Assembly (NCBI GenBank): GCA_963793265.1
Contig: CAWBZI010000007.1
Coordinates: 160,001 to 224,000 of the forward strand
Length of the DNA: 64,000 bases
Direction: 5' to 3'
DNA from: an uncultured cyanobacterium
GTDB taxonomy: Bacteria; Cyanobacteriota; Cyanobacteriia; Phormidesmidales; Phormidesmidaceae
In this document: piece after piece, positions 21,072-38,833 of the stretch
Numbering within the stretch: position 1 is the stretch's first letter
How the letters are laid out: every line of letters begins with the position of its first letter
Translations under genes and position numbers: made by a program
The notes under the pieces: model-generated
Seen by the model: the letters and a program-made list of their open reading frames with translations, nothing else
Told to the model about the DNA's origin: nothing
Database searches by the model: none

Positions 21072-21203
21072 CGAAGTTAGTGTGATTTTGCATGGCACCT
21101 GCTGAATAGCACTTTCAATACTATTGGCACAAGAAGCACAGCTCATATCTTTGAGTTTGAGGGTAGTTGCACTCATCGGATTCTCCCCTGAATGAATATC
21201 TAA

Positions 21204-21235
21204 AGAATAGATCCTCTAGTTGACTAGAGAGTCCA
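21204..21235 (-). promoter_or_regulatory. MerR/CueR-type promoter of the Cu-ATPase gene
   Basis: Minus strand: -35 TGGACT and -10 TATTCT with a 20-bp spacer that contains the dyad CTCTAGT-TG-ACTAGAG (21214-21229). Confidence 0.65.
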
Positions 21236-21405
21236 GGGGCGCTGAGTAAATGTTCATAAAGGAATAGTTGGTTTTATTCTTTGGCTATAGGCGGCTCATT
21301 TGCCATGGATATTGCAAAGTCAAGGATTCGTTGTCTAGCAGCCTCAAAGTCTTCACTGAAAGATATGTCTCTCTAAAACAGGATGTAAGACTCTTCAGTG
21401 ATACT

Positions 21406-21732
21406 TTAAGAAGCGTATGCAATATCCTGATGTTCAGATTGATAGGCTATTGCAATTCGATCAGGAGAAATGCCGGACTCTATCAAGTTTTGGGCTACGC
21501 CACATTCCATTCCGTCGTACTCAATCACAACTCTTTCGTCCTGTAGCGTGATATAGATAAGGTTTCCTCGAACCCGTCGCCCTCTATCCCACCCTACTTG
21601 CATCAGAGCATAATGTTTCTGCTCATCGTCGAAGACGGTATCCAAACGGATATCGCCATGAGACGGTTTCAACCGAGCATATTGGTTGATGATATCTTTT
21701 ACGATGTTTGAGAGCTGCGTGGTGGAATCCAT
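21406..21732 (-). CDS. xisI: XisI family protein
   Basis: FDDEQKHYALMQVGWD...IEYDGMECGVAQNLIESGIS...IAIAY. Confidence 0.85.
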   Translation of the reverse strand: MDSTTQLSNIVKDIINQYARLKPSHGDIRLDTVFDDEQKHYALMQVGWDRGRRVRGNLIYITLQDERVVIEYDGMECGVAQNLIESGISPDRIAIAYQSEHQDIAYAS

Positions 21733-22166
21733 TGCTGAACCTCTACAGTTTTTCGATTAACGACAATCAAATTTAGCGGTAGCTCGCTAATAACGAGTTC
21801 TCCGATTGGTTCACTCAGAATTTGATCATAGTCTAAATCGTTGACTGCGAGATAAAGACGCCGACTTGGATCAATTTGGTCGAGCAATAGGCGATAGAGT
21901 ACATACTGACCAATGGCTTGCTCTAGAGACGCGACTGCTGACTGACCTCGAAATTCTTTGATTTCTACGGCAATTCTTTGACTGTTCTTAGCAGCGCCAA
22001 TAAAACGACCTTGCAAGCTGTTGGGCCTTTCCTTCGCAGTAGCAGCCAAATCAACGAACAAAAACCTTTCACCGTACGATATGACGTAGGGATCGTCTGT
22101 AATTTGCCATCCATCTTTGACTAAAGCCTGTTTAACTAGGTCGTGAATGGCATCTCTTCTTGGCAT
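21699..22166 (-). CDS. xisH: XisH family protein (PD-(D/E)xK fold)
   Basis: ALVKDGWQITDDPY, IAVEIKEF, AIGQYVLYR, RRLYLAV. Confidence 0.88.
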   Translation of the reverse strand: MPRRDAIHDLVKQALVKDGWQITDDPYVISYGERFLFVDLAATAKERPNSLQGRFIGAAKNSQRIAVEIKEFRGQSAVASLEQAIGQYVLYRLLLDQIDPSRRLYLAVNDLDYDQILSEPIGELVISELPLNLIVVNRKTVEVQQWIPPRSSQTS

Positions 22167-22186
22167 TATGAAAAGATTTTAGGGAA

Positions 22187-22229
22187 TGGACGTACGCCGA
22201 CTCGAACGGCGAACCTCATCGATGTCAAC
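22187..22229 (-). repeat. 3' half of tRNA-Val(GAC); att-like boundary of island A
   Basis: 43-nt direct repeat of 31319-31361 with one mismatch. Confidence 0.92.
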
Positions 22230-22388
22230 AAGGCTTTCTAGGCTCTGAAACCTAATCACACCAGAGGATTCAGAGGCCATCTTTTTTCTTGCACCAATTT
22301 TGCACCAATCTACATCATATGGCCTGTCACACATTTGGGTATCAATCACTATGCATTAGCCACGGTATAGAAAGCTTTGTTAAAGCGA

Positions 22389-22694
22389 TTAAACCGGCTG
22401 CTCTTGCTTAACAGTGACAGATAGCTTCAACCCTAGTTCATTCAGTAAGGTCAGAAGTGTAGGCAGTGCTGGCATTTCTGCTTGCTTTAACGACTGGTAA
22501 CATTCCTCCCAATCGGCATTGATTTTATGAGTGCCATCAGGTAACGTCCTACGAGCCTCGGCAACATTTCTGAGCGCCAGTGACACTTCTTCTGGATTGC
22601 CATCTTCAAAGACGGCATCTAGATAAGCGGCGGCTTCTTCTTTATCTTTTAGCGACTCAATTAGGTATGAGTGATAGCTTTTAGAGGTTTGCAT
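22389..22694 (-). CDS. Addiction-module antidote (antitoxin)
   Basis: LKDKEEAAAYLDAVFEDG...LALRNVAEAR; start set at ATG 22694, 4 nt after the toxin stop. Confidence 0.8.
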   Translation of the reverse strand: MQTSKSYHSYLIESLKDKEEAAAYLDAVFEDGNPEEVSLALRNVAEARRTLPDGTHKINADWEECYQSLKQAEMPALPTLLTLLNELGLKLSVTVKQEQPV

Positions 22695-22698
22695 CGTC

Positions 22699-23037
22699 TT
22701 AATTTTGAACTGACTTTTGAAAAGCCATCCAGTACTGCTGTGCTCTAAGGATATCTCTATTCTGAGTCTTTTTGTCTCCGCCACACAACAAAAGGATAAT
22801 ATGCTGCCCTGTTTGAGCAAAATAAATTCTGTACCCTGGGCCGTAGTTGACTCTAAGTTCCAAGACACCTTTTCCAACGGCCTTGAAATCACCCATATTA
22901 CCGAGTTCAAGCCTGTCCAAACGCTGCTTGATCTTGGCTTTTGCTTGCCGGTCTTTCAAACCTTCTAACCAATGCACAAATGGACAGCTTCCATCTGGCA
23001 GTAGGTACAAGCTAATTTCCTTTGGTGACGCATCCAT
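22699..23037 (-). CDS. RelE/ParE (HigB-like) addiction-module toxin
   Basis: RLELGNMGDFKAVGKGVLELRVNYGPGYRIYF...LLLCGGDKKTQNRDI. Confidence 0.92.
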   Translation of the reverse strand: MDASPKEISLYLLPDGSCPFVHWLEGLKDRQAKAKIKQRLDRLELGNMGDFKAVGKGVLELRVNYGPGYRIYFAQTGQHIILLLCGGDKKTQNRDILRAQQYWMAFQKSVQN

Positions 23038-23138
23038 CAATGACCTTTCGTCCTAGTAAAGATGAGGTAATAATACCGTCTCAACTAATTTACATCATAT
23101 AGTGTAAACTTTGATCGATGTAACTTGTTTGCTCATTG

Positions 23139-24644
23139 ATGCAATTTGACCGTGTCCGTCAATGGAATGGATCTGCTCAAGCGCTGACTGAAGAAATTCA
23201 GTATCAGCTCGGTTCGTTGAGCATTCCAATAGAGCCGCCTGCACTGCGAACGATTCGACTTTGGCGGTCTAAGAAGCTGCTCTCTCAGCCGAAGGGCAAG
23301 AAGTTTGGGTTTCGCCAAATCTTAGAAGGCTTGGCTACGGTATTGCTATTAAAAAGGGGCTGGACGCTATCGGCAATTGGGCAGGTCTTACCGAATTTTT
23401 CTGATGCTGATATCGAGAGGCAAATTCTGGCTGAGTCGGAAAATAGAGATCCTAATTGGTCAGCTGTGATCGCACAAAGCCCTACATTCGCAACCAGTTT
23501 GCGGAGCATTGCAGACATCGCAGAAGATGCAGTCGTTTTACTCGCTCAGGGCATTTTGAAACAGTACACGCGTGTTCTTAATCAAGAAATCGTACGGCAA
23601 GACGACCGTATCCCCTCCGAACTCTACAGGGCGATGTGTAAACTAGGTCGTCTATATATTGAGGAAGGATTACCCGATAAAGCCGCTTGTGTTCATACCG
23701 TACTCAATCACGCTCGACACAGTTTTAATTCAGAGATTTGGCAGTTAAAGGTCTTTAGCCAAGATGATTTTCGGTTTTCGGAGGTTGTTCTCATTGAGCC
23801 TGATTTATATGTACCTACGTCAGACTGTACTGAAATTGCTCAGGCTAATGGCGGCTGGGGAGAAGATAACGTCGTTGAGTATCGCTTATATCAAAGACTA
23901 AAAGCATCTACAGAAGAACTGGGCGCACGTAGGCAGCATCTTGGATACACTGCACTACGAGAACTCGCTGTCCGGCATTCTCTCATCACCGAAAAGGCAC
24001 TGTGGGAATATCTCGAAGATCATCAGTTGACGCCTCTTCAGGAGATGATTATTGGTACCTTCTTCGATCGAGTTCCAGAGAGCTGGCTAATCGAGGGAAA
24101 GGCAAATCGGTGTGCTCACTGTGGGACGTTGATGCATCCGCATCCCAACCGTAAACAATTTTCAAAAGGGCGGTGCCCTATCAGACAATGCAATAGTTGC
24201 TATCCACCCAAAGTCAGTGAGGCGATAGATCCAAGGCACCATCGTCTACTCATTGCGAAGCCTCAGATTTTGACCTATTGGACAGGCCCAGGCATTGATG
24301 AGCTTGCCATTTTCGATGCTGCGAAGAACCAAGGGCTGAAGGCTGAACTGTATCCCGAATCGGATTTGTGTGATGTGTCACTCGATGACTATGCAATTGG
24401 AATAGATGCAAAATCATATATCAGTCCAGTTTCGCTAGCGTTACGACTCAATCAGAGTATCGGTGGTCTTGGTTATTACCGTCGTCGCATTATTGCCATC
24501 AGCGATCAGCTTATTGCAGATAATCCAAGCTATTTATCAACTTTGCAGTCAACACTCTCAAAAAAAGGCGATCTAGAAACGCTGGAAGTCTTTTCTGTGT
24601 CTGCTGTGCTGAAGCTTTTGAAGGAGGTTGCTTATGCGAGTTAA
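23139..24644 (+). CDS. Restriction-endonuclease-fold protein of a pPIWI-RE-type island, with an N-terminal MerR-like HTH and a Zn ribbon
   Basis: N-terminal RTIRLWRSKKLL (MerR-like); CAHC...CPIRQC; YPESDLCDV...IDAKSY PD-(D/E)xK-like core; gene order. Confidence 0.75.
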   Translation: MQFDRVRQWNGSAQALTEEIQYQLGSLSIPIEPPALRTIRLWRSKKLLSQPKGKKFGFRQILEGLATVLLLKRGWTLSAIGQVLPNFSDADIERQILAESENRDPNWSAVIAQSPTFATSLRSIADIAEDAVVLLAQGILKQYTRVLNQEIVRQDDRIPSELYRAMCKLGRLYIEEGLPDKAACVHTVLNHARHSFNSEIWQLKVFSQDDFRFSEVVLIEPDLYVPTSDCTEIAQANGGWGEDNVVEYRLYQRLKASTEELGARRQHLGYTALRELAVRHSLITEKALWEYLEDHQLTPLQEMIIGTFFDRVPESWLIEGKANRCAHCGTLMHPHPNRKQFSKGRCPIRQCNSCYPPKVSEAIDPRHHRLLIAKPQILTYWTGPGIDELAIFDAAKNQGLKAELYPESDLCDVSLDDYAIGIDAKSYISPVSLALRLNQSIGGLGYYRRRIIAISDQLIADNPSYLSTLQSTLSKKGDLETLEVFSVSAVLKLLKEVAYAS

Positions 24645-27600
24645 GCCTGACTTTTGGAAAGGGCCGGATCAAATTTGCTGGCTTTGTGTCTTGATGGAGT
24701 TTTTTGTAGGAAGCCAGTCTTTAGAACATGCGCCTGCTGTAATGTCTGGGATGGAAAGTGTTTTGAATGCACCTGCGCTCGCGGATGCACGTCAGGCTGT
24801 TTTTAATTTGAGGCAGATGTCTTTAGCTTATGCGACACAGCGCTCAGTTGATCATGCGATCGCAGTCTATAACAACCATCACTATGTGAAAGGCACACAA
24901 GGCGTTTATAGAATTGATGCTAAGCAGCTAACTTTTGAAAGAACAGACCCTTTGGAAAACTCTTTAATTACGCAGGCCAAGGAACTTCTGCGATCTCCAA
25001 TTGCCTACCAGCCCAATACGGCTAAAGTTGCTGAGGCAAATCAAGGAATGAGTATTGCACTAGGGGCAGAAGCTACGTCCACAAGAATTCCAATTCCACC
25101 GATTGAAGTAGAAATCGCGCCAAGGCATTACCATTCGCTGAACCGACAGCCTTTAGGGGATATTCAGATTCCCCTAAAGGCATTAAAGTTGCTTGCCGTT
25201 GAGATGGATAAAAGGGAGTTGAAATATCCTGAACGGCGTCCTGGCCAATGGGCCAGTCGGTTAGACAGGTTTATGCTGACGGTGCCTACAGAAGTAGGTT
25301 TGCAATCAATAGACATCCTAAACTTGTCGGGCATAAAGCACCTGATCGGATTACCAGGCTCAGGAAAGACAACAATTCTCATTCTTGTAGCCGTATGGCT
25401 AGGGCGGAAAGATTACAAAGCAATGTTTGTTTTTCCCTCTATTGAAGTTGCCCGTCAATATATGGATGTTTTGCAGTTCCATACGGTTAAAGTCGGTATG
25501 TTGGTAGGGCAAAGCGATGAAACGCGCAGGCGACATGCTGATAATTTGGCAGAGGCGATCGCAGCAGCACATCCCAACAAAGGATTTGCTCACACGCTAG
25601 GCGTTGCCGATATTTTTAGCCTTAACTGTGTGCTACCGGCTTTTTCTAATGCAGACACCTCAATGTGGGGATTTGGCTACGCACCTTGCAATGCTGTTTT
25701 GCAAAGTGGTGCAAAAGGAAAGTTAAAACAGTGTCTTTGTCCACTTTGGACAATGTGTGGGCGTAATAAATCCGTACGAGAGCTGACAGATGCCAACATT
25801 TGGGTTGGCCATATTCGCTCTATGGATACGAAAGTCTCACCTCATGCCATCCAAGCTCAAATTCGATATTTTGAACTGATTGCCCGCACCTTTGATGTGG
25901 TGGTATTTGACGAGGCTGACATGGTGCAATCAGATTTAGATACCTACGGTGCCGCAACACTAAGTATTTCAGGATCGGAGAAATCTATTCACCGCACTAT
26001 TCAAGAACAAATTCACAATCGCTTTGCAGGCGAAGACAACCACCGATTAGCGGATCCTGATGTCGGAGCCTTTAGTCGGCACCTGGCGGAATTTGGAAAT
26101 CACAATAATGCGCTTGTCACTACGGTTCAAAATCTGAATGAATCTTATGTTGGAGAAAAATATGAGAACCAGCTACTCACCGTACTCAAAATTGTCAGTG
26201 ACCTGCTCAATGAGAATAATCAGCACTCAGATAAAGTAACTTCACATCAGGAAGAAGCTGATAAGGCGAAAATCTCTAGGCTAAAGATTGATCGCAGCCG
26301 AGCCTTGACAGATTTTTGGGAGACTGCTGCGTATGAGGCTTTTTACAACCGGACGAGTAGCAGTGTAGAAGAGTGGAAAAACTTGGCCTTTAATGCCACT
26401 ACTCTGGAAATTTCGGAAAAAGACTTGGAAAGGAAACGGAATAAGCTGATTCAGCACTTTCGGCGCTATCTGGCAGAAGATTTAGCCCAGCCAAGAGATG
26501 ATATAGCCCTAAAAATCTCTCGTTTCTACTTATCACTCTGCTTCCCTGAACACTCACCAACAGGAGAAAAGTCTGATGCTATCAAACTACTTATTGCCAT
26601 AACATTCGTTATTCTTGGCTATCAGCGCATTATTCCAGGAACCAGGGCGCTCGTTGCGGAAGGTCTTATTCGAGATCCTATTATTCAATCTACGGCTTCT
26701 AGGTCGCTACGGCGAATGATTCCTAGTAGCCTGCTCGGTTCACTCTCTGGCGTAAAATATACCTTTTCCAAGGCCCAAACAACCCGTAAAAACGCTAAGA
26801 ATGTAGAAATATCTTACATAGCATTTGTCGGAGCCCCCCGAATGCTGATGTACCGATTCCATCAGTTACTATCAGCAGACAATAACCATCCTGGGCCGGT
26901 AACCCTACTGACGTCTGCAACATCATTTTTGGAAGCTAGCCCCGCCTACAACGTCAATATCAAACCAGACTATCTACTCAAGCCCCGCGAGTCTTTGCAA
27001 AAAACAGAACCTAGTCGATATGAATTCAAGTGGCAGGCAGACAGCGAATGGAAAGGTCAGCCACTACGCTATAGCGGGGCTGGAGAGTACAGAGAGCGCA
27101 ATCTGAGAAAAATGGTGGAAGAACTGGTTAAAGGTGGAACTAGGGAAGGGGACAGCAGGCAATCTGAGATCTATAAATCTATCAATAACTTTGATGTTCG
27201 CGACGGGCAAAAGCGAAAAGCCGCGCTCATTGTAAACAGCTATGAGCAAGCGAGAATGATTAAAACATTTTTGAACAGATATTATCCAGAGACGGGACGC
27301 CGGACTAAAGCAGTTGTTCGATTCCTGAAAGATGGAGAGAAATCTGATGACTATGTAACCACAGGTCAATGCGAGTCTTTAGGTGATGACGATGCTTGCG
27401 ATATTATTATTTTTCCAATGTTAGCGATTGGGCGAGGGGTAAATATTGTGTTTACCCAAGGACCTCGGACACTGGATGCCGCCATTGGCTCTCTCTATTT
27501 TTTGACTAGGCCGCATCCTACCAGTGATGACATGCAGCTGTTGTATAGCTTAGCAGGACGGGCGACGCAGGCTTTTGATAATAAAGTGTTTGGGGAAGAA

Positions 27601-28071
27601 GATGTGGGTGTGATCGCCAAGTCTTGGCAGCAGGCTAGAAAAGACCTATGGAAAACAGCTAATCAGCTTCTACGTGAGCCTATTATGGCTAGTCGGCTAA
27701 GCCCTGAACTATTTAAAGCTTTCACCGCTAATCAAATGGTTGCCATTTTACAAACCATTGGTCGAGGGATGCGCAACGGTTGTCCGGTTGCCGTCTACTT
27801 TGTAGATGCTGCTTGGGCCATGAACTCTGCTGTGGGAAAAACCGACTCAGGCAGAGACAGCATGTTAGTTCAAATGCGCGTCATTTTAGAAGACTGTATG
27901 AATCATCCTGATCCGATTGATCGTTCAATTTATCAAGAACTCTATGGCGCTTTTTTAGAACCCTTAAGAAAAATCTCCGGCGTCAACTATCTCAGAGATC
28001 TACAGCATACTTCAGATGAAATATCTGAAACAGACGACTTCGATTCACATTCATATTTCTACGAACAGTAA
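24634..28071 (+). CDS. DinG-like SF2 helicase of a pPIWI-RE-type island
   Basis: GLPGSGKT, VVFDEAD, TSATS, AIGRGVNI, QTIGRGMR; Cys cluster after Walker A; AAGGAGG RBS before ATG 24634, which overlaps the upstream stop. Confidence 0.85.
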   Translation: MRVKPDFWKGPDQICWLCVLMEFFVGSQSLEHAPAVMSGMESVLNAPALADARQAVFNLRQMSLAYATQRSVDHAIAVYNNHHYVKGTQGVYRIDAKQLTFERTDPLENSLITQAKELLRSPIAYQPNTAKVAEANQGMSIALGAEATSTRIPIPPIEVEIAPRHYHSLNRQPLGDIQIPLKALKLLAVEMDKRELKYPERRPGQWASRLDRFMLTVPTEVGLQSIDILNLSGIKHLIGLPGSGKTTILILVAVWLGRKDYKAMFVFPSIEVARQYMDVLQFHTVKVGMLVGQSDETRRRHADNLAEAIAAAHPNKGFAHTLGVADIFSLNCVLPAFSNADTSMWGFGYAPCNAVLQSGAKGKLKQCLCPLWTMCGRNKSVRELTDANIWVGHIRSMDTKVSPHAIQAQIRYFELIARTFDVVVFDEADMVQSDLDTYGAATLSISGSEKSIHRTIQEQIHNRFAGEDNHRLADPDVGAFSRHLAEFGNHNNALVTTVQNLNESYVGEKYENQLLTVLKIVSDLLNENNQHSDKVTSHQEEADKAKISRLKIDRSRALTDFWETAAYEAFYNRTSSSVEEWKNLAFNATTLEISEKDLERKRNKLIQHFRRYLAEDLAQPRDDIALKISRFYLSLCFPEHSPTGEKSDAIKLLIAITFVILGYQRIIPGTRALVAEGLIRDPIIQSTASRSLRRMIPSSLLGSLSGVKYTFSKAQTTRKNAKNVEISYIAFVGAPRMLMYRFHQLLSADNNHPGPVTLLTSATSFLEASPAYNVNIKPDYLLKPRESLQKTEPSRYEFKWQADSEWKGQPLRYSGAGEYRERNLRKMVEELVKGGTREGDSRQSEIYKSINNFDVRDGQKRKAALIVNSYEQARMIKTFLNRYYPETGRRTKAVVRFLKDGEKSDDYVTTGQCESLGDDDACDIIIFPMLAIGRGVNIVFTQGPRTLDAAIGSLYFLTRPHPTSDDMQLLYSLAGRATQAFDNKVFGEEDVGVIAKSWQQARKDLWKTANQLLREPIMASRLSPELFKAFTANQMVAILQTIGRGMRNGCPVAVYFVDAAWAMNSAVGKTDSGRDSMLVQMRVILEDCMNHPDPIDRSIYQELYGAFLEPLRKISGVNYLRDLQHTSDEISETDDFDSHSYFYEQ

Positions 28072-28081
28072 TCAATCATCC

Positions 28082-31000
28082 ATGAAAAATCAATTCGTTC
28101 AAGTCGGCCAAATTAAAAAGCTGCGCGATGTCTCTTTAGCATTTACAGTTCCAGATGACTTACCCTCGATTCTGATCAGTGGCACAACACTCGTTTGGAC
28201 AAAACAAGCCCTAAAGACCTTCAGTGACATTCACAGGGCTGCTTATGAAGAAAATGAGAAGTTCAAGGAACTCCCTTATCAATCGCTCAGAGGAGGATTA
28301 ACTGTCAATCTAGAGGCCATCACTCGAATCGAATCGCACTTAGGCTTAGAACATTCTCTGATTAGAAACGTTCGTAGCGATAAGCCTCAGGAGTATAGCT
28401 TCGCGTGCTTGCTAGATAGCAATGATAACAATCAGCTTAAAAAAAGGTTGCGCTCTACTTTAAACAATTGGCTTGTCAACTACTTAAGACCGTTCTGCAA
28501 AGAAAAGAACGTTCCCGACAACCTACTGGATCAAGTCCAGAATCTGATCGAGCATAACGAACTAATACGCCTTTCCACTTTTGGATTTAACTTATTACCA
28601 TGGGCAGCAGGAGAAAATGGTACAACAGAACCTGAAGATGGCCGTGCTTACATCGTAGTTGTAGACTACGTTGCTCGCTTAATCGCAGGAAAGGAGCTAT
28701 TTGAGGGTTGCGGCCCAATGCGGCGAGTCATCTCCAGCTATGGTAAATTCGCGAGCAATATTGCTGAGCTTATAACTTCTCCTATCTTTATAGAAAATAA
28801 AGGGCGTTTTAGCTTGGTGATAAAGCTACAGGTCGTCACCTTTGCCTCAATTAGCCAACCTATCATTAAGCTGGATGTTTCCAAACGCCGGTGGCTGGAT
28901 TTACTTGATGCACCTGAGCGCGATCGCCAAAAGATTTCTGGCTATGCATTTTCTTCAACTCTTCAAGACCGCACATTCAGTTTCAAAGTCGCTCCTTGCA
29001 AAGATAATAATGAGTGGACTTGGAAAACAGAAAAAGACTTTGGTGCCATTCGGCGTCAACTAGAGCTAGGTATGCAGACGTTTAGCGGTCAGGATATCGT
29101 TTTAGGAAACGCTGATATTGGTGGCTCTCAGCTTGTGCTCTGTCATCGCAATAGCCTGGGGAAACACGGTATTGATGCAGGCGTACCAGAAGTTGACAAG
29201 TTAGAGGCTTACACAAAAGTAGAAAAGATAGTAAGTACTCTTGGCCTCGTACCTTTCGCAGCGTATGAACCCATTGGGAACAAAAGTAGCAAAAGACAGG
29301 AAGAGAAAGAGATCAAACTACCAACGCTGTTGAGCGCTCTACTCCAAATCAGTGATTCTGACTCACCCGCTCCTACACTTGATTACATAAACAAGCTTAG
29401 CGATAGTCAGCTCAATCAGCAGCTAGCAAAAGCGTTTCGTTTCTCTTCAGAATCCGTTAAATTCGGTAGGAAGGCATTTCAAGTCAGCCAGCCAAAGGAA
29501 AGTGATTTTGAAGAACTCCAAGCAATAAGAGAACGAAACAGCAATGCTTTAAAGCGGTTGTATCCAGGAGAGAAGCTATCACTCTTTATATTTTATCAAG
29601 ATGGCTTTTGAGAAGAACTGAAGTTTCTGACAGCATTAGCACAATTACTATGGGGAGAATCTGTTGAAATTGTAACCAATAGCTTGCCACCAAATACGCA
29701 TGGCTCAAGGCATGACTTGCCAAACCCGAAAGCAAAAGCGCAGGAGCGCTCTAAGCAGCGCATTAAAGCGTGGGAGTCAACTGCAAAGCAACTCGCTGAG
29801 CGAGAGGGGCGAATCTTCTGCCTTGTGCTTGCCGCAAAATTCTTCAAAGATGAAGATGGCACCGATAAGCGAGACGATCCCATCAACAAACCATCTACAA
29901 GGAGGGCATTGGCGAGCCTGTGTGGCGCTTGCGTACAATTCATCACCCAGATGAATAGAACTAAAAACAACCTAATTGATTTAGTAGATTATTCTCGTCG
30001 GGGGCAGCAAGCGCTGAAAGATTTGCTATCTGCGCATTCAGGGCGAGTAGAAAGTATTAAAGATAAAGTCGATGAGTGTTTGCAAATACCGTCAGCATCC
30101 AAACCCAAAGAAATTATTGCTATCACCATTGTACGCAAACAAAAGGGCCGCGTACGAGGTCGTATTGAGAGTACTTTTCTACCTGTTGCCATTCGTATTC
30201 AGGTTGAAACGGAGCGGTGTGACATGCGCTGTGCTTACGCAATTGAGGAGAAACTAACGACAACGGAATGGGAGAAGTTTCCTGATGCACTTGCTAGAAT
30301 CGCAAATATTTCTCCTGTTAAGATAGGAAACAGTCATCAAACACGGAAGAGAAATTTCATGCAGTTTGTGAGGAACGTTATCTCTTCCTCCGTTAAACAA
30401 GAGATGCAACCCTTGGTAATAATAGATTCAACCAATTGCGTTCAACTATGGCCCTGGCTAGCTGACAGCCGCATAAACGCGAATAATATCCAGCTTGAGG
30501 GCGTTTCTAGCTGGATGTACAAAGAGTGGGCAGGGGCCAGACTCGTCCGCATCAAACAAGGCTTTACACCCGCGATTATCGAAGAGAAAGTACGCTACAT
30601 CATGGAATCATCGATAAGCGATGAAAGATCTTTAGATGAATTGAAACAGCTAGATGCAGACATTAAGATTCCATCCGCATCTAGCACCCTTGGAAAGCTA
30701 TTCCGATTGAAGGCGTCTAATTCAACGGGATGTATTGTTTATTTATCCATAGGTAGTAGAGCTGTTCAACAAGAGTGGAGAGGACAAAGCTGTTATCATG
30801 CTATACCCGCTTATACTTCTGTGAGGCTTCAGGATACTGATGAAACTTCAGAAAAAGGCATCTCTAAAGAGAGACCTAAAAAACTAAAAAACGCCGCTGG
30901 AATCGAGATGCGTGAATCGTCTGAAAAGCCACCCTTTATAAAACAATGGCCAACACCCAATCCACTTGAAATTTTAGTCACTTTACACCAGGATGACGAT

Positions 31001-31162
31001 AATCCTGACCAAGTAGCAGCTCTCGTTGAGTCTCTGCGATATGTCCTCGGACACTATGCAGAATCAACGACTCTACCAGCTCCACTATTCTTTGAGCGTG
31101 TCGTTAGAGACTACATCAGCGATTTTTCAATTGAGGATGACTCTGAGAATGAGGAATTTTAG
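28082..31162 (+). pseudogene. pPIWI-RE-like (divergent PIWI/Argonaute superfamily) protein of about 1026 codons with a single in-frame TGA at 29609-29611
   Basis: ORFs 28016-29611 and 29684-31162 are in the same frame (offset 1668 nt); translation across the stop is ...FYQDGF*EELKFLTALAQLLWG...; motifs LPYQSL, KRRW, DPINKPSTRRALA, DSTNCVQLWPWLAD, ARLVRI, PNPLEI, LR...TLPAPLFF. Confidence 0.75.
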
Positions 31163-31318
31163 TGGTTCCCTTTTGTAAGGGCTTTGCCAACGCACAGAGG
31201 GTAGTGCTTACGTCAAGGGCATAGCAGGGGTATGGCTACTACCAATGAGTTGCATCTGTAAACTCATGTGTCAAACGTTTCCTTTCCGAAAACCTCTTAT
31301 GAAAATGGCTTTAATAAA

Positions 31319-31392
31319 TGGACGTACGCCGACTCGAACGGCGGACCTCATCGATGTCAACGATGCGCTCTAACCAACTGAGCTATACGTCC
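31319..31392 (-). tRNA. trnV: tRNA-Val(GAC)
   Basis: GGACGTA TAGCTCAGTTGGTTAGAGC G CATCG TTGACAT CGATG AGGTC CGCCG TTCGAGT CGGCG TACGTCC A; complete cloverleaf. Confidence 0.97.
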
Positions 31393-31420
31393 TGAAGCGA
31401 TGCTTTTACACCGGGCTTTG

Positions 31421-31450
31421 AATATACCACAGCGGTTTGGGTTGGTGCAA
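31421..31450 (-). promoter_or_regulatory. Sigma-70-type promoter for the intact tRNA, located inside island B
   Basis: Minus strand TTGCAC-N18-TATATT with a TG extended -10. Confidence 0.55.
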
Positions 31451-31606
31451 TACTTGATTTTAGCTATATGGGCTTAAACTCTAAGTTGCCTGAATCTACA
31501 GGGCTATATTCTAGAGTTTTCAATCAAATTGGTAGACGACTGGTAGAAAATCTTTGCTTACTATACATAGGTTCTAGCGTCTGAGCCATACACTAGACGC
31601 TAGAAA

Positions 31607-31852
31607 ATGGAGTTCAATCTGACGACTGATAAAGGTAGCTATCGAATTGATTTTACTTTAGATGGGAAGCGTAAGCGTTTTCATCCAGGCACTAAGGACG
31701 AGATCACCGCTAAGCAGTTAGTAGCGCAAATGACGTATGAGTGGAATATAGGGAAGTTTGATGTAACTCTACACTCCTACAAGCTCAGGAATAGAATCCA
31801 GGCACTGCTGCGTTTGTTCAGCCTTGGAGCGGGTGGAAAGAACCATCCATAA
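31607..31852 (+). pseudogene. Integrase N-terminal Arm DNA-binding domain remnant
   Basis: YRIDFTLDGKRKRFH...AKQLVAQM...GKFDVTLHSYK, adjacent to the tRNA; no catalytic domain follows. Confidence 0.7.
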
Positions 31853-32934
31853 TTTGGGCAATGAGTGTAGCAACTACGGGTTCTATGAAATCACCAACTG
31901 TGGATATTATTACTAATCCATTATGGGAGTTGGACAGTCAGGAGAGTGAAGATAGGGACTACGTTGTAGACGATGTTACGATGGAAGCTCTTATTCAAGT
32001 CTATCAACATAATCCCAGAGGGCTGTTAGTACATAGAGATGAGCTAGATGGCTTGTTTAAAAGTGATAATAAATATCGTGGTGGGAAAGGAGATGATTCA
32101 CAGAAATGGCTATCTCTTTACAGCGGTAAACCTATCAAAGTCAATCGAAAGGGAATTGAAAGCGACAAATTACAACTCAATAAAACGACTGTATCAGTTA
32201 CAGGTACTATTCAGCCTGAGATATTAAGACAGTATCTCAAAGGAATTCAAACCCATAGTGGATTTAATTCAAGGTGGTTATTCTGTAGTTCTCAAATGCC
32301 TTCTGCGAAATATACCGGTAAAGATTCTCCAGATGTTAGGGATATTTTGACGCAGCTCTATTTGGCATTGGGAAAAGTCCCAGATGGTTCTACGTTTGTA
32401 TTTTCTAGCGAGGCTAAAGATTGCTTTGTTAGAGACTGGCATGACCCTATTGTCGAAAGAATAGAGCAAGAGCAAAATCCTTTTATTCAGGCTATTCTAG
32501 CCAAGATGAAAGGGTATTGTGCCAAGATAGCTTCGATTATCCATTGCATTAATGAGGCCATTGCAACTAGCCATAACAATTCAGAAACTGCCATAGATAT
32601 CTCGAAAGAAATATCCTTAGAGACGATTCAAAAGGCAATAGCCCTATCTTTTTTCTATGTAGCCCAAGCAGAAAAGATTTATGGAGTAGTAAGAGAAACT
32701 CAAAACCCCACATACGATGTCTGGATGATTCTGAAACAGCTATCTGAAGACAGTGGCGGATGGATAAAAGCTAGAGATGCTGGTCAGAAAACCAAAAGGA
32801 TTAAGGGAGCAGACAACTTCCGTAAACTATTTCAGAGTATGGCTTCTGATGGGTTTGGAGAAGTCCAAGGTGAAGGAAAAAACCTTGAGTGGAGGTATGG
32901 AGAGTCTATAGAAATAGCTTCTACACTTCTGTAA
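31795..32934 (+). pseudogene. DUF3987/YfjI-like primase-helicase-associated protein, 5'-truncated
   Basis: Frame open from 31795: WKEPSIIWA...TGSMKSP, DVTMEAL, PRGLLVHRDELDG, VSVTGTIQP, GFNSRWLF. Confidence 0.7.
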
Positions 32935-32962
32935 AACGCTGAAAGTATTGTAGCTTAAAGGC

Positions 32963-33002
32963 TTAGCTGTAGAGCTACTGCTAGAAATAGCTCTACAGCT
33001 AA
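32963..33002. repeat. Perfect 15-bp inverted repeat
   Basis: TTAGCTGTAGAGCTA-N10-TAGCTCTACAGCTAA. Confidence 0.85.
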
Positions 33003-33096
33003 ACAGAATTTTCGTATGTCAAAATGTGTTAACAAGCGCATCTATACTTTCTATATCGGTGCCTTACGGATTGCGCTGAGTCTCTCCATATCATTT

Positions 33097-33744
33097 CTAT
33101 GCTTTCACATGGACTATCCCAGGAAGTCTTAGCATGCAACTTAAGTTTGCGTTTTTGGGAATTCCACTTGAGTTCAATCGAGTTTTACTAGCCGAGAAAA
33201 AAATTTGCTTCCTTGCTCTAGTTACACCTACATAAAATACGCTCAATTCTTCCAAGAATGGTTTTCTGTTTTTATCGCTCACTGTTAAGTTGCAACTATT
33301 TTTATAATTGCAACTTCCACAAAGCCCGCGCCAGTTAGGAATAGAATATTGTTCCATGTCTGGCATTAAGACGTAGTCCCATTCTAGTCCTTTTGCTCCG
33401 TGGATCGTTGAAATAATAACGCTTCTATCAATATATTCCATGTTTTGTTTCAAGGTTTTATTGTCAAAGGTATCTCTTATTAGGACTACTTTGTCCTCAG
33501 CACTCAAAAAGGAATAATCAGTTGATACCCTATCTAAAAATACTCGTAGTAGATTCAGTAACGACGCTATGACAGGTTTTCCACTATCTCTAAATGTTTT
33601 TTCAACTCGAAGGCATAATTTTCCTAGACTTCCTTTTGAAATCTTAATGCCTTCTCTTAATTGATCAGTAAACTGAGAGGAACACTCTCTATGAAATAAC
33701 AAGTAGTCTGGGTCATCATCTACAAAGAGGGCATAAAAATAAGG
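33097..33744 (-). pseudogene. C-terminal fragment of a UvrD/Rep-type SF1 helicase, truncated at IS1
   Basis: STIHGAKGLEWDYV and FYVGVTRAR present; no Walker A/B; abuts the IS1 left end. Confidence 0.8.
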
Positions 33745-34571
33745 GGTAGTCCTTAACGTGTAAGGATAATTCTATCGATTAGGCGATGCGATCGCACAAA
33801 CGATTGGGTGATAATAGTAACGTTGCAACCTTAACTTTTCTAGTGACTTCCGCTCTTCCAACCTGCCCTGATTGCCATTCTGATTCTGTTGTTAAGAATG
33901 GATTTATTCACAACGGCAAGCAAAATCATCTGTGTAAAGACTGCGGACGACAATTCGTCAAAGACCCGCAGAATAAGGTGATTAGCGATGAGACGAAGGC
34001 GTTGATAGACAAACTATTGCTAGAGAAAATACCGCTGGCTGGGATTGCTAGAGTGGCTGATGTTTCTGAGGTATGGCTACAAGGTTACGTGAATAAGAAA
34101 TATGCATCGGTACCGCGCGAAGTCAACGTGCGGGCCAAAAAAAGGGGCGATTGACCATCCAATGCGATGAGATGTGGTCATTCGTGGGCAACAAAGGCAA
34201 CAAACAGTGGGTATGGCTGGCGATAGATATTGAAAGTCGAGAAGTTGTAGGGCTCTACATCGGTCGTCGAAGTCGAGTCGGTGCGCGTGGGCTATGGGCC
34301 ACACTGCCTCCCGTCTATCGGCAGTGTGCTGTGGCCTATACTGACTTCTGGGAAGCTTATGAACAGGTAATTCCAAGCAAACGGCATCGAGCAGTAGGGA
34401 AGGAAACGGGACTGACCAATCGGATTGAACGACTCAACTGTACCCTGCGTCAACGTATCTCTAGATTAGTGCGTAAAACGCTCTCATTTTCTAAAAAGTT
34501 GGAGAATCATATAGGCGCTATCTGGTACTTCATCCATCACTACAACGCATCCTTACCGCTTTAGGACTACC
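33745..34571 (+). mobile_element. IS1 family insertion sequence
   Basis: IRs GGTAGTCCTTAACGTGTAAGGAT and (rc) GGTAGTCCTAAAGCGGTAAGGAT; no target duplication. Confidence 0.92.
33843..34564 (+). CDS. IS1 transposase InsAB (programmed -1 frameshift)
   Basis: InsA CPDC...KNG...CKDC; slippery A7G4 at 34137-34147; InsB CDEMWSFV, YTDFWEAY, IERLNCTLRQRISRLVRKTLSFSK. Confidence 0.9.
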
Positions 34572-34753
34572 ATGACCTAATTACTATAACGAACTACATA
34601 CGTATTAGGTTTTCTTTTTTCTAATTATACTGAGTCTCAAAATATACTGATGCTACAATGGAACAGTTAGCTATTTAGACGATGAGATTCATGAAAAGTA
34701 TCATTTTAATTAGGGCAGTATAAAGATACATTTACCGTACCAAATAACTTCTC

Positions 34754-35818
34754 ATGCAACTTCTGCGTAAAAGAACTATTAAATCTGATTCCGATGCAAG
34801 TAACACTGGTAGTCTTCAAGAACAGCTTGAAGAGAAAATGTTTAATCTTTTTGGACAGGTAGTAGAGAAGCGAAGCGACTATTATGACTCCCATCAAAAT
34901 GAGTTGCCAACAATTCAAAGTCTTCCTACACTAACCAAATATTGTGGCAATCAAAATGCTGCGATTTCCGGTGGTGCTAGCTTAGTTCCTGGGCCTTTAG
35001 ACATGGTGGCAGTAGTTCCCGAAATCACGTGGATTATCAAAAATCAAGTGGAGATGGTCTACGATATTGGCGTTGCATACGGTTACAGAAAGCAATTATC
35101 ACCTGAACTCCTTGCCAGCGTAGTCGGGTATGCATTAGGCGCAGGCACTCTAGGTCTAATAGCGCTACATGGACAAAAAGTGCTGGTAAAAAGAGCATCG
35201 CTTAGACTAATGCAAAAGCTCGTTAAGCTGATGGCAGGAAAAGTATCACAGAGACTACTCAAATCTATGGTGGGTAAGTGGGTTCCCGTTGCTGGTGCTG
35301 TTGCTTTAGCAGCATGGTCTAAATATTCAACACATGCAGTAGCTAAAAAGGCTATCTCTATTTTCGAGAAAGAATTTGTATTTTCTGATGATGAGGTAGG
35401 TCTTGAAGGGTATATGGAAAATCAGGATTCTTTAGAAGTATCAAAGGGCAATAGCTCAGGTACAGAGAGTCGAATCGAAAAAGCGAAGATTGAATCGCTT
35501 ATTAGCCTTATGCGTATAGACGGAGAAATTAAGTCAGAAGAACAAAAATTTATCGGACTCATTATTGAGGATTCTACTGTTCCTGATGGTGAGAGGATTG
35601 ACCTAATCAAGAAGATGAATCAAACTACCAAGTTGCAAGTCGATTATTCAGAAATCAAGAAGTCACCTGAAGATGCCGTCAGTCTGACTATTGATTTGGT
35701 AGCTCTATCGAAACAAGATGGTGAGTTTCACATTTCTGAGAAGATGTTCATTAAACAAGTAGGCAAAATGGTGGGCATGTCTCAAGACGACTTATCCGAA
35801 GTCATGTTGGCCTCATAG
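34754..35818 (+). CDS. EcsC-like protein with a C-terminal TerB-like domain
   Basis: GGASLVPG...QVEMVYDIGVAYG...GKWVPVAGA; C-terminal RIDGEIKSEE and KQDGEFHISEKMFI. Confidence 0.6.
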   Translation: MQLLRKRTIKSDSDASNTGSLQEQLEEKMFNLFGQVVEKRSDYYDSHQNELPTIQSLPTLTKYCGNQNAAISGGASLVPGPLDMVAVVPEITWIIKNQVEMVYDIGVAYGYRKQLSPELLASVVGYALGAGTLGLIALHGQKVLVKRASLRLMQKLVKLMAGKVSQRLLKSMVGKWVPVAGAVALAAWSKYSTHAVAKKAISIFEKEFVFSDDEVGLEGYMENQDSLEVSKGNSSGTESRIEKAKIESLISLMRIDGEIKSEEQKFIGLIIEDSTVPDGERIDLIKKMNQTTKLQVDYSEIKKSPEDAVSLTIDLVALSKQDGEFHISEKMFIKQVGKMVGMSQDDLSEVMLAS

Positions 35819-36186
35819 TTTGACATCTTCAAATTAGAGGTGTTTGCAAGATACTAATGTCAATGTAGTGATCTCATTAAGGGTTTATGTGCAGTGGTAA
35901 TTGTAGGTTTATTAGTACTTAATTGTACTGTCTAAGCTAATCTTAGCCAGGAAAACGACGCGCTAAACCTGTCTAAGACCTTATAAGACCCTAGTTATAG
36001 GAAAACTCTATCAAGCTCCTCTTTACTAAAATAGATTCAGTAGAGAAGGGCTAATCCATCTCATACCTATTTTCATACAGACAAGAATACTCGATTTATC
36101 CAGTTGAGCTATTAATGTTTGGGAGAGAAGTGCTAGATTCTACAGACTTGATACGCTAGAACCCTTATGTAAAAAGCAAGATACCA

Positions 36187-36229
36187 ATCGATGTCAACGA
36201 TGCGCTCTAACCAACTGAGCTATACGTCC
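36187..36229 (-). repeat. 5' half of tRNA-Val(GAC); outer boundary of island B
   Basis: 43-nt exact repeat of 31350-31392. Confidence 0.92.
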
Positions 36230-36330
36230 TTAGTGGAAACTGGGCATAGCATGGCGGTTGCCTCCTATGCAAGTATGGATTTTGTTGAGGCAAAACTGCA
36301 CATGACGAAAGTTTAGTCTACTGGGAGTAT

Positions 36331-37173
36331 TTGATTTTGAGACGTTTGGTGTGGGGAATAGGCGCGATCGCACTACTCTATCTCGGGGCCTGCATAGCGC
36401 TATGGGCCTATCAGCCACGAATGATATTTTTCCCTGATGCTTTGGTGAAGAGTAGGCCAACTGAGGTAGGGCTAGCTTACGAAGACATAGAGCTGCAAGT
36501 TCAGGGCGATACTGTGCATGGATGGTGGATTCCGGCGGTGGGTGAGACGGCCCCGGTTGTGCTGTACCTGCATGGGAATGGCAGCAACGTGGGGGATTTG
36601 GTGGCGCGGGCGCAAAGGTTTCATGAGTGGAATTACAATGTGCTGCTGATCGACTATCGAGGGTATGGGCGTAGCAGCGGAAAGTTTCCGAATGAGCGGC
36701 GGGTGTATGAGGATGCTGAGGCAGCTTGGCAATATCTGACGCAGGAGCGGCAGGTGGCGGCAGAGCGGATTGTGATTTTTGGTCAGTCTTTGGGGGGAGC
36801 GATCGCAGTGCAGCTAGCGAGCCAAAAAAACGATGCAGCGGGGCTGATAGTCGAGTCGTCTTTTACGTCTATGAGAGAGATGGTGGGGCACTCATATTCG
36901 CGGCTACCGTCGCTGGTGCCAGTGAATTTGATTTTGACGCAGCGGTTTGATTCTTTGGCGAAGGTGCGATCGCTCAAAATGCCCTTACTGCTGCTGCATG
37001 GCACCGAAGATCAGATGGTACCGGCCAGGATGAGCCAGGCTTTGTACGATGCGGCAGGCGGTGAGAAGTCATTGGTGTGGCTTGAAGGCGGTGGGCACAA
37101 CGATTTGCCTTATAGAGAAGGGAGTGAGTATGCAGATAGTATTAGAGCCTTCGTCGAGCGGTATGCTAAGTAG
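36331..37173 (+). CDS. Alpha/beta hydrolase (ABHD/Bem46-like)
   Basis: YLHGNG, DYRGYGRS, GQSLGG, HGTED, GGGHND. Confidence 0.92.
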   Translation: MILRRLVWGIGAIALLYLGACIALWAYQPRMIFFPDALVKSRPTEVGLAYEDIELQVQGDTVHGWWIPAVGETAPVVLYLHGNGSNVGDLVARAQRFHEWNYNVLLIDYRGYGRSSGKFPNERRVYEDAEAAWQYLTQERQVAAERIVIFGQSLGGAIAVQLASQKNDAAGLIVESSFTSMREMVGHSYSRLPSLVPVNLILTQRFDSLAKVRSLKMPLLLLHGTEDQMVPARMSQALYDAAGGEKSLVWLEGGGHNDLPYREGSEYADSIRAFVERYAK

Positions 37174-37198
37174 CAATTAATCGATTGCGCCTACTACG

Positions 37199-38833
37199 AT
37201 GAGCCGTATTGCAGCCAACTCACACTCTCAGCGTCGCCTCTGGAGCTGGATTGTTGTCATCCTTTTATGTTTGGGCGTTTTGTTTCGAGTGTCCTATCTC
37301 GATCGGCCTGTGTACTGGGTGGATGAGGTGGCAACGTCTATGCGGGTGTCGGGGTATACGCACGCGGATGTGCGGGAGCAGGTGGCGACAGGGTTGCCGG
37401 TTACGGTGGCGGATTTGCAGACGTTTCAGATGATTAGGGGCGATCGCCCCCGTTCAGATTTGTCGCGAGTGCTTACCCAAAGCCCAGAACATGCGCCGCT
37501 TTATTTTGTATTAGCCAGGTTTTGGGCAGAGGCATTGGGTGGTTCTGTTGTGGTGATGCGAAGCTTGCCCGTGTTGTTTGGGTTGTTGGCCTTCCCGGCA
37601 ATGTATGGACTAGGGAGAGCGCTGTTTCAAAAGCATCAAGGGCGGCATTTGATTGGGCTAAGTGCGATGGGGCTGCTAGCGATTTCTCCCTTTTTTGTAG
37701 CCTACTCGCAGGAGGCGCGGCCCTATAGCCTTTGGATACTGCTGCTGTTGCTGGTGAGTCAGTTTTTAGCGCGATCGCTCCAATCAAACCGCTGGCAGTG
37801 GTGGCTCAGCTACGCCCTTTCTCTTATTCTATGTTTGTACACCTCCCTGCTAACGGTGCTTGTTGTCTTTGGTCAGGGGCTAGCGGTGATAGCTTTTCAT
37901 CCCAAACGACGGCTCTCCTATACGATTGTGACAGGGGCTTCGCTGGTCGCGCTTCTACCCTGGGTAGTTGTGGTGTTTACCCACTGGACGAAGCTACAGA
38001 GCAATACGGTTTGGATGCAGGTGCCAACAACAATATGGGCGATTTTAGGCACATGGTTTTATAGCCTAGCAGTGCTGTTCTTTGATGTGCCAGTGGCGGT
38101 AAATCCAGTGCTATTCGTGATGGAAGTGGTTGCAGCAACGCTAACGCTAGCGGTAATTGGCTATGCTTTTTACCACCTCATCCGCAGCGCACCTCGTTCT
38201 GTAATAGGATTCTTTTTGGCAGGGACGTTTTCAATCCCGCTGATGCTGTTGTTAATTGACATTGTTCGTGACGGACAGGCCGCTGCTACGCCCAGATACC
38301 TGATGCCGACTCATATAGGTGCTTTGGTGGCAACGGCTTATCTAATAGGCGATCGCCTTTTTGCAGCGAATAATTTGACAGGAAATCAGACAGCTAAGCT
38401 GTCAACTAAGCAGTGGAATAGTGCGATCGCCTTACTCCTATCCGTCAGCCTATTGTCTTGCATTATCGGTCTGAATAAAGACTCTCCCTATCTAAAAAGT
38501 CGCAACCTGAGCAACGCAGGAATTATAGCCGAGCTAAACAACGTCCAATTTGTTCAGCTTGTCACAACGCCCTACTACATTCAAGATGTGATCTCTTTAA
38601 GCTATCGGTTAAATCCTGACATCAGCATCTATTTCTTACCCGAGAAAAGCGACCCCGGCGAGCTACTGACAAAAGTTGTGAGCCTAAATAAGCCCACCTT
38701 CTTGTTTACACCTTCAGAAGAGCTGAAAGCAGTTGTAAAAGAGAATCAGTTCGGTAATTTGCGATCCGTCTTCGAGCCTGCACCTCTCATTTCAGGAGAC
38801 TACGGTCTGACGCTTTGGAGGCTTGAATCATGA
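37199..38833 (+). CDS. GT-C fold glycosyltransferase (family 39/PMT-like)
   Basis: YWVDE, EHAPLYF, RSLPVLFG, SPFFVAYSQEARPYSL; multiple TM helices. Confidence 0.88.
   Translation: MSRIAANSHSQRRLWSWIVVILLCLGVLFRVSYLDRPVYWVDEVATSMRVSGYTHADVREQVATGLPVTVADLQTFQMIRGDRPRSDLSRVLTQSPEHAPLYFVLARFWAEALGGSVVVMRSLPVLFGLLAFPAMYGLGRALFQKHQGRHLIGLSAMGLLAISPFFVAYSQEARPYSLWILLLLLVSQFLARSLQSNRWQWWLSYALSLILCLYTSLLTVLVVFGQGLAVIAFHPKRRLSYTIVTGASLVALLPWVVVVFTHWTKLQSNTVWMQVPTTIWAILGTWFYSLAVLFFDVPVAVNPVLFVMEVVAATLTLAVIGYAFYHLIRSAPRSVIGFFLAGTFSIPLMLLLIDIVRDGQAAATPRYLMPTHIGALVATAYLIGDRLFAANNLTGNQTAKLSTKQWNSAIALLLSVSLLSCIIGLNKDSPYLKSRNLSNAGIIAELNNVQFVQLVTTPYYIQDVISLSYRLNPDISIYFLPEKSDPGELLTKVVSLNKPTFLFTPSEELKAVVKENQFGNLRSVFEPAPLISGDYGLTLWRLES

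Follow-up and report, generated by a model that had tools for sequence, protein, structure and literature searches.

How does a tRNA gene come to stand intact between two displaced halves of itself, and how much of the working copy still belongs to the host? We addressed this question in a 64,000-nt window (the whole stretch of DNA analysed here) from an uncultured cyanobacterium, G000, whose genome comprises 5.68 Mb in 7 contigs. The window contains a tRNA-Val(GAC) gene with a genomic island on each side, referred to here as island A (downstream) and island B (upstream; 31393-36186). We consider it probable that these are two tyrosine-integrase islands of opposite polarity that inserted in the anticodon loop of the same tRNA-Val(GAC) gene, and that both have since decayed. 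The pieces on which this reading turns are the following.

22187..22229, minus strand: displaced 3' fragment, tRNA positions 32-74, the core of the right attachment site (attR) of island A; BLAST against the whole genome, 42/43, E 1e-15.
22230..31318, no strand: island A, bounded by the tRNA and the co-oriented 3' fragment; no integrase.
31319..31392, minus strand: intact tRNA-Val(GAC), called by ARAGORN and Rfam.
36187..36229, minus strand: displaced 5' fragment, tRNA positions 1-43; BLAST against the whole genome, 43/43, E 5e-18.

The gene at 31319-31392(-) is the sole tRNA that ARAGORN identifies in the window. It scores 66.9 bits with Rfam, and an Rfam scan of 20500-37500 gave no match besides it; at 9 of the 12 relatives' loci the corresponding gene is identical over 74/74 positions. 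Both outer fragments are co-oriented with the intact gene. The original prediction, made from the letters of the window, had described exactly this array of a 3' half, an intact 74-nt gene and a 5' half, all on the minus strand, and the BLAST matches recover it. The single mismatch of the 3' fragment is GGTTC for GGTCC in the variable loop. We found that the two halves overlap by 12 nt, tRNA positions 32-43 (ATCGATGTCAAC on the plus strand), which comprise the anticodon loop and the 3' side of the anticodon stem; the overlap is therefore confined to the anticodon arm, and positions 1-43 joined to positions 32-74 rebuild a complete tRNA, both as predicted. A BLAST search of the tRNA against the whole genome found no further tRNA-Val(GAC) fragments nearby. 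Other intact Val(GAC) copies, which the prediction had left to be checked, are absent from the 43 tRNA genes of the genome: Val(GAC) is single copy (31319-31392), while Val(TAC) and Val(CAC) lie on other contigs.

Read in the sense of the tRNA, the locus begins with a divergent alpha/beta hydrolase gene (36331-37173) and a weak promoter-like stretch, followed by the 5' half. Island B (4.8 kb) comes next, with a conserved promoter between it and the intact tRNA, and beyond the tRNA stand island A (9.1 kb), the 3' half and a XisH/XisI pair. The fraction of guanine plus cytosine (GC) falls from ~0.52-0.55 to 0.38-0.46 across ~21000 to ~36300, and the HIP1 motif (GCGATCGC), with 24 copies in 1-21000 and 47 in 36230-64000, has 4 in 21001-36229. 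The HIP1-rich core DNA noted beyond 36230 is thus present (47 HIP1); one correction is that the low-GC region begins near 21000, ~1.1 kb past the 3' half. Outside the 3' half lie an ISL3-family transposase gene (19382-21025) and the XisH/XisI pair (21406-22166). This stretch (19382-22186) may hold the relic of another island, the GC content being already low from ~21000.

The evidence that carries our reading of island B comes from G046, another species of the same genus. Its array consists of a 46-nt 5' half, a 5.35-kb element, an intact tRNA, a 5.4-kb A-type island and a 43-nt 3' half. The 5.35-kb element contains genes for proteins with DUF4429 and DUF3987 (517 aa) domains and for a tyrosine integrase of 384 aa (PF00589, 3.1e-19); the integrase gene is transcribed away from the tRNA and starts 425 nt upstream of it. 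We found that the element is flanked by an exact 348-nt direct repeat (L044:10319-10666 and 15672-16019) in which 302 nt of upstream sequence precede 46 nt of the tRNA. On its left the repeat has a sharp edge within the neighboring DUF1350 gene: the outer copy runs into the whole DUF1350 gene and its syntenic neighbours, and the inner copy holds the first 186 nt of DUF1350. Since only the outer copy continues into the complete gene, it is the chromosomal one and the inner copy is element-borne. The arrangement suggests that the G046 element captured host DNA, as in aberrant excision.

Both ends of island B resemble this element, and its inner end retains the start of an integrase gene.

31528..31579, minus strand: arm-type sites on the integrase side of island B (TTTTCTACCA and TCTACCAAT), with a CGCTAGAACC box.
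31607..31852, plus strand: remnant of a B-type tyrosine integrase, an 81-aa open reading frame whose first ~69 residues are homologous (72%), the rest being deleted.
36112..36186, minus strand: far end of island B, adjoining the 5' half, with GGTTCTAGCG at 36154-36163 and a degenerate arm site at 36117-36138.

The far end together with the 5' half (36112-36229) shares 80.5% identity over 118 nt with the G046 junction, and the inner end (31530-31804) is 75% identical to the G046 element. Arm-type repeats TTTCTACCA on both sides and the GGTTCTAGCG box are common to island B and the G046 element, the far-end arm copy being degenerate in the window. The integrase-side arm sites are shared with G046:C5, G046:C23 and G050, and in G074, where the integrase has the classical orientation, they are inverted relative to the tRNA. 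Beyond the remnant of ~69 codons, island B contains no integrase domain; the only PF00589 match in the genome is a TetR_N-tyrosine recombinase fusion of 403 aa at 6927-8138(-). By homology, we read island B as a decayed reversed-orientation, i.e., 5'-restoring, element. The claim that it supplied the 5' half and the promoter of the tRNA gains support from the fact that both of its ends are homologous to an element whose integrase is intact and which has a 348-nt repeat.

Elements of this type are found at other tRNA genes as well, namely tRNA-Ala(GGC) (L080, G046:C23), tRNA-Val(CAC) (L083, G050:C88) and tRNA-Pro(CGG) (L046, G018:C82); all three contigs end within the elements, so that one junction is seen per element. 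The integrase is divergent from the adjacent tRNA at tRNA-Ala(GGC) and tRNA-Val(CAC), and at tRNA-Pro(CGG) a 5' half is again joined to the B far-end motif via the anticodon stem. Across 173 genomes of the order, integrase homologues with more than 50% identity are present in G046 (two copies), G074 and G068, with partial ones in G018, G050 and G000. Those of G074 (68%) and G068 (54%) are classical, the tRNA being followed by the integrase, and in G068 a 3' fragment lies 24.3 kb downstream. We surveyed polarity at 30 loci with a full-length integrase, leaving out the partial or broken L053 and L066, and found 2 reversed, 21 classical and 7 without a tRNA in the locus. In a tree of the 30 integrases, for which midpoint rooting alone was used, both full-length reversed sequences group together (100/96), and this clade is nested within G074 (100/98) and then within G068 (100/100). 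By this tree, the B-type integrases appear as a small reversed-orientation clade nested among classical tRNA-Val integrases. A metagenome search with a 4-sequence alignment added one close relative, which is classical and stands at tRNA-Val(CAC); a search for relatives with a single integrase returned the locus itself and distant matches only. Two matches to the 5' part in G006 were considered as a 5' half and rejected as overlapping contig ends. Upstream of the relocated tRNA-Val genes of G020, G053, G013 and G017, a search for B-type relics found no arm-like or CGCTAGAACC-like motif within 450 nt.

Island A is recognizable by a different signature, located beside the 3' fragment.

22289..22309, minus strand: attR arm-type repeat of island A, ATTGGTGCAA twice, ~60 nt from the 3' fragment on the island side.

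The 21-mer attR arm motif occurs in 11 of 46 genus genomes, and a reversed control pattern in none. A tRNA-Val 3' piece follows the motif at 10 of the 19 sites in these genomes, and at four others the motif is placed between the tRNA, which lies just upstream of it, and the start of an integrase gene or integrase relic that follows directly. The intact A-type integrase of relatives comprises 375 aa (PF00589, 3.4e-14) and shares 25% identity with the B-type integrase. No integrase domain (PF00589) was found among the open reading frames of 22230-31318, and tblastn of the A-type integrase against the whole genome gave no match. The arm motif of the A-type left attachment site (attL; ATCGAATCT..TGC) is missing near the tRNA, the window holding 2 matches versus 3.0 expected, both elsewhere; by eye, the ~30 nt after the tRNA still resemble the A-family attL at 20 of 31 positions. 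Judged from its attR layout, we read island A as a decayed classical, 3'-restoring tRNA-Val island. The original claim that it supplied the 3' half fits the combination of arm repeat and 3' fragment, which is typical of the classical tRNA-Val islands of the genus. In G049 (loci L094 and L099-L105), seven A-type arm motifs are distributed over six contigs; a clear tRNA-Val 3' piece comes after four of these motifs and a degenerate one after a fifth, which suggests long tandem arrays of A-type islands.

In the history that we favor, island A would have carried the 3' part of the tRNA in its own attachment site (attP), and its integration would have left the old 3' part at 22187-22229. Island B would have carried a promoter and the 5' part in its attP and would have left the old 5' part at 36187-36229. 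The working gene would then consist of the B promoter, the B 5' part and the A 3' part, joined in the anticodon arm, and the outcome would be the same irrespective of which island arrived first. The proposal that the intact gene is a chimera of two elements crossing over in the anticodon arm is supported, mainly by the G046 array. Both islands are fossils, and we infer that both are now fixed. The host would presumably depend on island DNA to express this tRNA, and some of the decoding may fall to the tRNA-Val(UAC) gene.

Several observations weigh against this history; they concern mobility, the G046 assembly, the position of the locus and the two upstream regions. Neither island retains an integrase here by which its mobility in this strain could be demonstrated. 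The G046 sequence has the look of a short-read assembly, and an empty site plus a free circle would be another way to resolve its repeat; the element carries the 348-nt segment under either resolution. The outer site may never have been the resident tRNA locus at this position, because no tRNA stands within 1.5 kb of the hydrolase gene at any of its 13 loci in relatives and because tRNA-Val adjoins another gene in G020 and G053. The original prediction had expected relatives to show tRNA-Val beside the hydrolase, and in this it failed. At 9 of 13 genus loci (8/12 plus G046), tRNA-Val has a DUF1350 gene on its upstream side, in divergent orientation. In G000 the DUF1350 gene is found on another contig (C4:699350) with no tRNA or promoter adjoining, and comparison of that junction with 10 references detected no decayed promoter or tRNA (z <=1.1). 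We considered the C4 junction and the outer promoter as two sides of one breakpoint, an idea weakened by G013, G020 and G053, which likewise have DUF1350 without the tRNA. The tRNA-Val locus has moved repeatedly within the genus, and the block in the window may have arrived beside the hydrolase as a unit.

A rival account, which we regard as rather unlikely, takes up this last point: the ~15-kb low-GC block (~21050-36320), including both halves, would have been acquired or translocated as one, the halves being relics of a locus elsewhere or in a donor and the tRNA still being the product of two elements. The edges in GC and HIP1 content speak for it, since they fall at ~21000 and ~36300 and not at 22187, as do the ISL3 transposase gene at the left edge and the fact that tRNA-Val stands beside DUF1350 in 9/13 loci, yet C4:699350 has neither tRNA nor promoter. 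However, no repeats or target duplication were found at the block edges, and because G013, G020 and G053 show the same separation of DUF1350 from the tRNA, the break need not be specific to G000.

The upstream regions of the two 5' ends raise a different difficulty.

31421..31450, minus strand: predicted promoter carried by island B; TTGCAC (31445-31450), 18-nt spacer, TGgTATATT (31421-31429).
36243..36272, minus strand: outer promoter-like sequence; TTGCAT, 18-nt spacer, TGcTATGCC.

The inner -10 ends 28 nt before the tRNA, and the motif TTGC(A/C/G), 18-nt spacer, TGgTATA(T/G)T is found at the same place upstream of the tRNA in 15 genus relatives. We found that the inner upstream region resembles the native upstream region of all 15 relatives (z 7-29, 0/200 shuffles). 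The outer upstream region exceeds z 2 against 3 of the 15 and is clear only for L015 (z 5.0) and L017 (z 3.2), and its -10 hexamer is TATGCC versus TATATT or TATAGT in the 15 relatives. Taken alone, the stronger similarity of the inner region would favor the inner copy as the native one. A simple consensus promoter scan made no call in 31200-31700, because the -35 matches at 3/6 positions only; in 36050-36450 the same scan gave only an unrelated site (36421-36449), which was set aside. Furthermore, the 5' half is conserved at 43/43 positions, yet the boxes adjoining it differ at ~9 of 24 positions conserved in relatives. Equal neutral decay of the 5' half and the outer boxes cannot give that contrast; it could perhaps result from gene conversion by the intact copy, from an outer promoter that had diverged before a recent insertion, or from selection against the outer promoter.

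The pattern invites the view that the inner promoter and tRNA 5' part are native and that the outer 5' half arrived with island DNA, as a foreign fragment or as a duplicate, and the lack of any relative with the tRNA beside the hydrolase would agree with it. We find this improbable, given that the inner promoter is immediately preceded by the integrase remnant and the arm sites, in an order that matches G046, where the inner copy is element-borne, and that here, just as in G046 and G018, the transition from the outer half to the conserved B far-end motif falls exactly at the end of the anticodon stem. The original prediction had held that relatives with the inner upstream sequence at their native locus would speak against an origin in island B. 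Taken literally, this holds, for relatives carry a homologous promoter there; we do not regard it as diagnostic, because a 5'-restoring element must carry a copy of the promoter. Sequence comparison alone is not decisive here, and it is the geometry in common with G046 that leads us to regard the inner copy as element-borne. The placement of the predicted promoter of the intact copy within island B stands, with the G046 homology and the motif conserved in 15 relatives behind it and the simple scan silent. With two opposite-polarity insertions, the tRNA would be transcribed from ~31414, and the outer promoter, probably native and inactive, would be dead.

A single composite element that brought its own complete tRNA-Val and split the resident gene with no restoration would explain why the outer halves alone rebuild the tRNA and why no integrase separates the two parts. 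We consider it very improbable, since A-type islands occur at tRNA-Val without B in other genomes, B-type elements occur at other tRNAs without A, and the G046 repeat flanks B alone. That the three copies are mis-joined repeats in the assembly, as might be supposed from public unitigs that stop at each tRNA copy, is hardly credible when the repeats are just 43 nt, every unique junction is spanned, at 0-3 differences, by unitigs from two studies, and G046 independently shows the same array. The unitigs come from four public metagenome runs, and one of the two studies may be the source of the assembly. They cover five unique junctions (XisH to 3' half, 3' half to island A, tRNA to inner promoter and island B, island B to 5' half, and 5' half to hydrolase) and break inside the 43-nt tRNA repeats, as expected for k=31. 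Among the metagenome contigs there was no alternative, circle or empty-site joint, and these contigs prove nothing on this point.

Together with the two insertions, a broader scenario can be put forward tentatively. A cyanobacterial tRNA-integrase lineage may have flipped its polarity by capturing host DNA upstream of its target (348 nt in G046), whereby the promoter would have been replaced; with the integrase lost and the native -10 changed, the only tRNA-Val(GAC) would be locked, irreversibly and with its promoter and both halves, onto fossil DNA of two unrelated elements. If true, this would amount to the complete and irreversible replacement of an essential-class gene by two unrelated elements.

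Islands that restore the 5' part of a tRNA gene are already known though rare, and the two-sided replacement is a further case with a neat consequence. The statement of the original prediction that 5'-restoring elements are less common agrees with Table 1 of the Islander report, which gives 159 islands with a 5' fragment versus 3760 with a 3' fragment (of 3919) (PMC4383910); the same report counts 2083 anticodon-centred sites (PMC4383910). A passage in a review describes 5'-distal recombination as 'considerably less frequent', citing Zhao & Williams 2002 (J Bacteriol 184:859) (PMC6563490). Island B is like the reversed-target-orientation islands in tRNA genes, in which a tyrosine integrase crosses over in the tRNA gene and restores the 5' part; since the 5' part is restored, the element must supply the promoter. 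It goes beyond the known reversed islands in that the B-type integrases appear to form a cyanobacterial subclade nested in classical tRNA-Val integrases and use at least four tRNA species, in that the 348-nt segment of G046 reaches the neighboring protein gene, and in that the window copy has lost its integrase. There is also a likeness to the 'tandems' of Islander, in which several islands occupy one tRNA gene, each with a displaced fragment, and A-type arrays of this kind occur in G046 and G049. Unlike those tandems, where 3' fragments are stacked downstream, here one island lies on each side of the tRNA, and because of this no original part would remain in the working gene or its promoter. 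A narrow, non-exhaustive literature search found no description of one tRNA gene with an island of each polarity.

The locus would thus represent a natural case in which integrative elements leave a working tRNA gene and promoter without any original part. The reversed integrases of G046 and the classical integrases of G074 (68%) and G068 (54%) provide a close set for asking what sets polarity, and integration polarity is relevant to integrase-based genome engineering. With regard to annotation, both islands of this locus would escape island finders that require an integrase gene.

Both islands carry defence cargo. Their remaining features are as follows.

22389-23040, minus strand: Gp49/HI1420-like toxin-antitoxin pair, island A.
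23136-24644: PprRE, island A; match 2e-130.
24628-28071: PprDinG, island A; match E 0.
28016-31162: PprPIWI, island A; in-frame TGA at 29609-29611.
31861..32934, plus strand: DUF3987 protein, island B, N-terminally truncated (357 aa versus 517 aa in G046).
33097..33702, minus strand: C-terminal fragment of GajB (Gabija UvrD-like helicase), island B.
33745..34571, plus strand: multi-copy insertion of the IS1 family in island B, with InsA/InsB open reading frames at 33786-34564.
34754..35818, plus strand: TerB-domain cargo protein, island B.

The IS1 copy in island B has a unitig depth of 50-63 versus ~8 and loose ends at 33744 and 34571, and the GajB fragment beside it is probably what remains of a disrupted Gabija system. 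The 3' end of the TerB-domain gene also matches the start of G046:C23. Island A holds consecutive genes for a restriction endonuclease, a DinG-like helicase and a pPIWI protein, and a pPIWI_RE (Ppr) gene set is therefore present. In this cargo, with its matches to PprRE, PprDinG and PprPIWI, island A is like the Ppr defence islands, and it is unlike them in being a fossil without an integrase whose PIWI gene contains an in-frame TGA. The stop interrupts the PprPIWI reading frame in the assembly, while position 29609 is C (CGA) in contigs of runs X1 and X3, and the unitig of X2 stops at 29608. Because the X1 and X3 contigs read C at this position, the stop looks like a population polymorphism.

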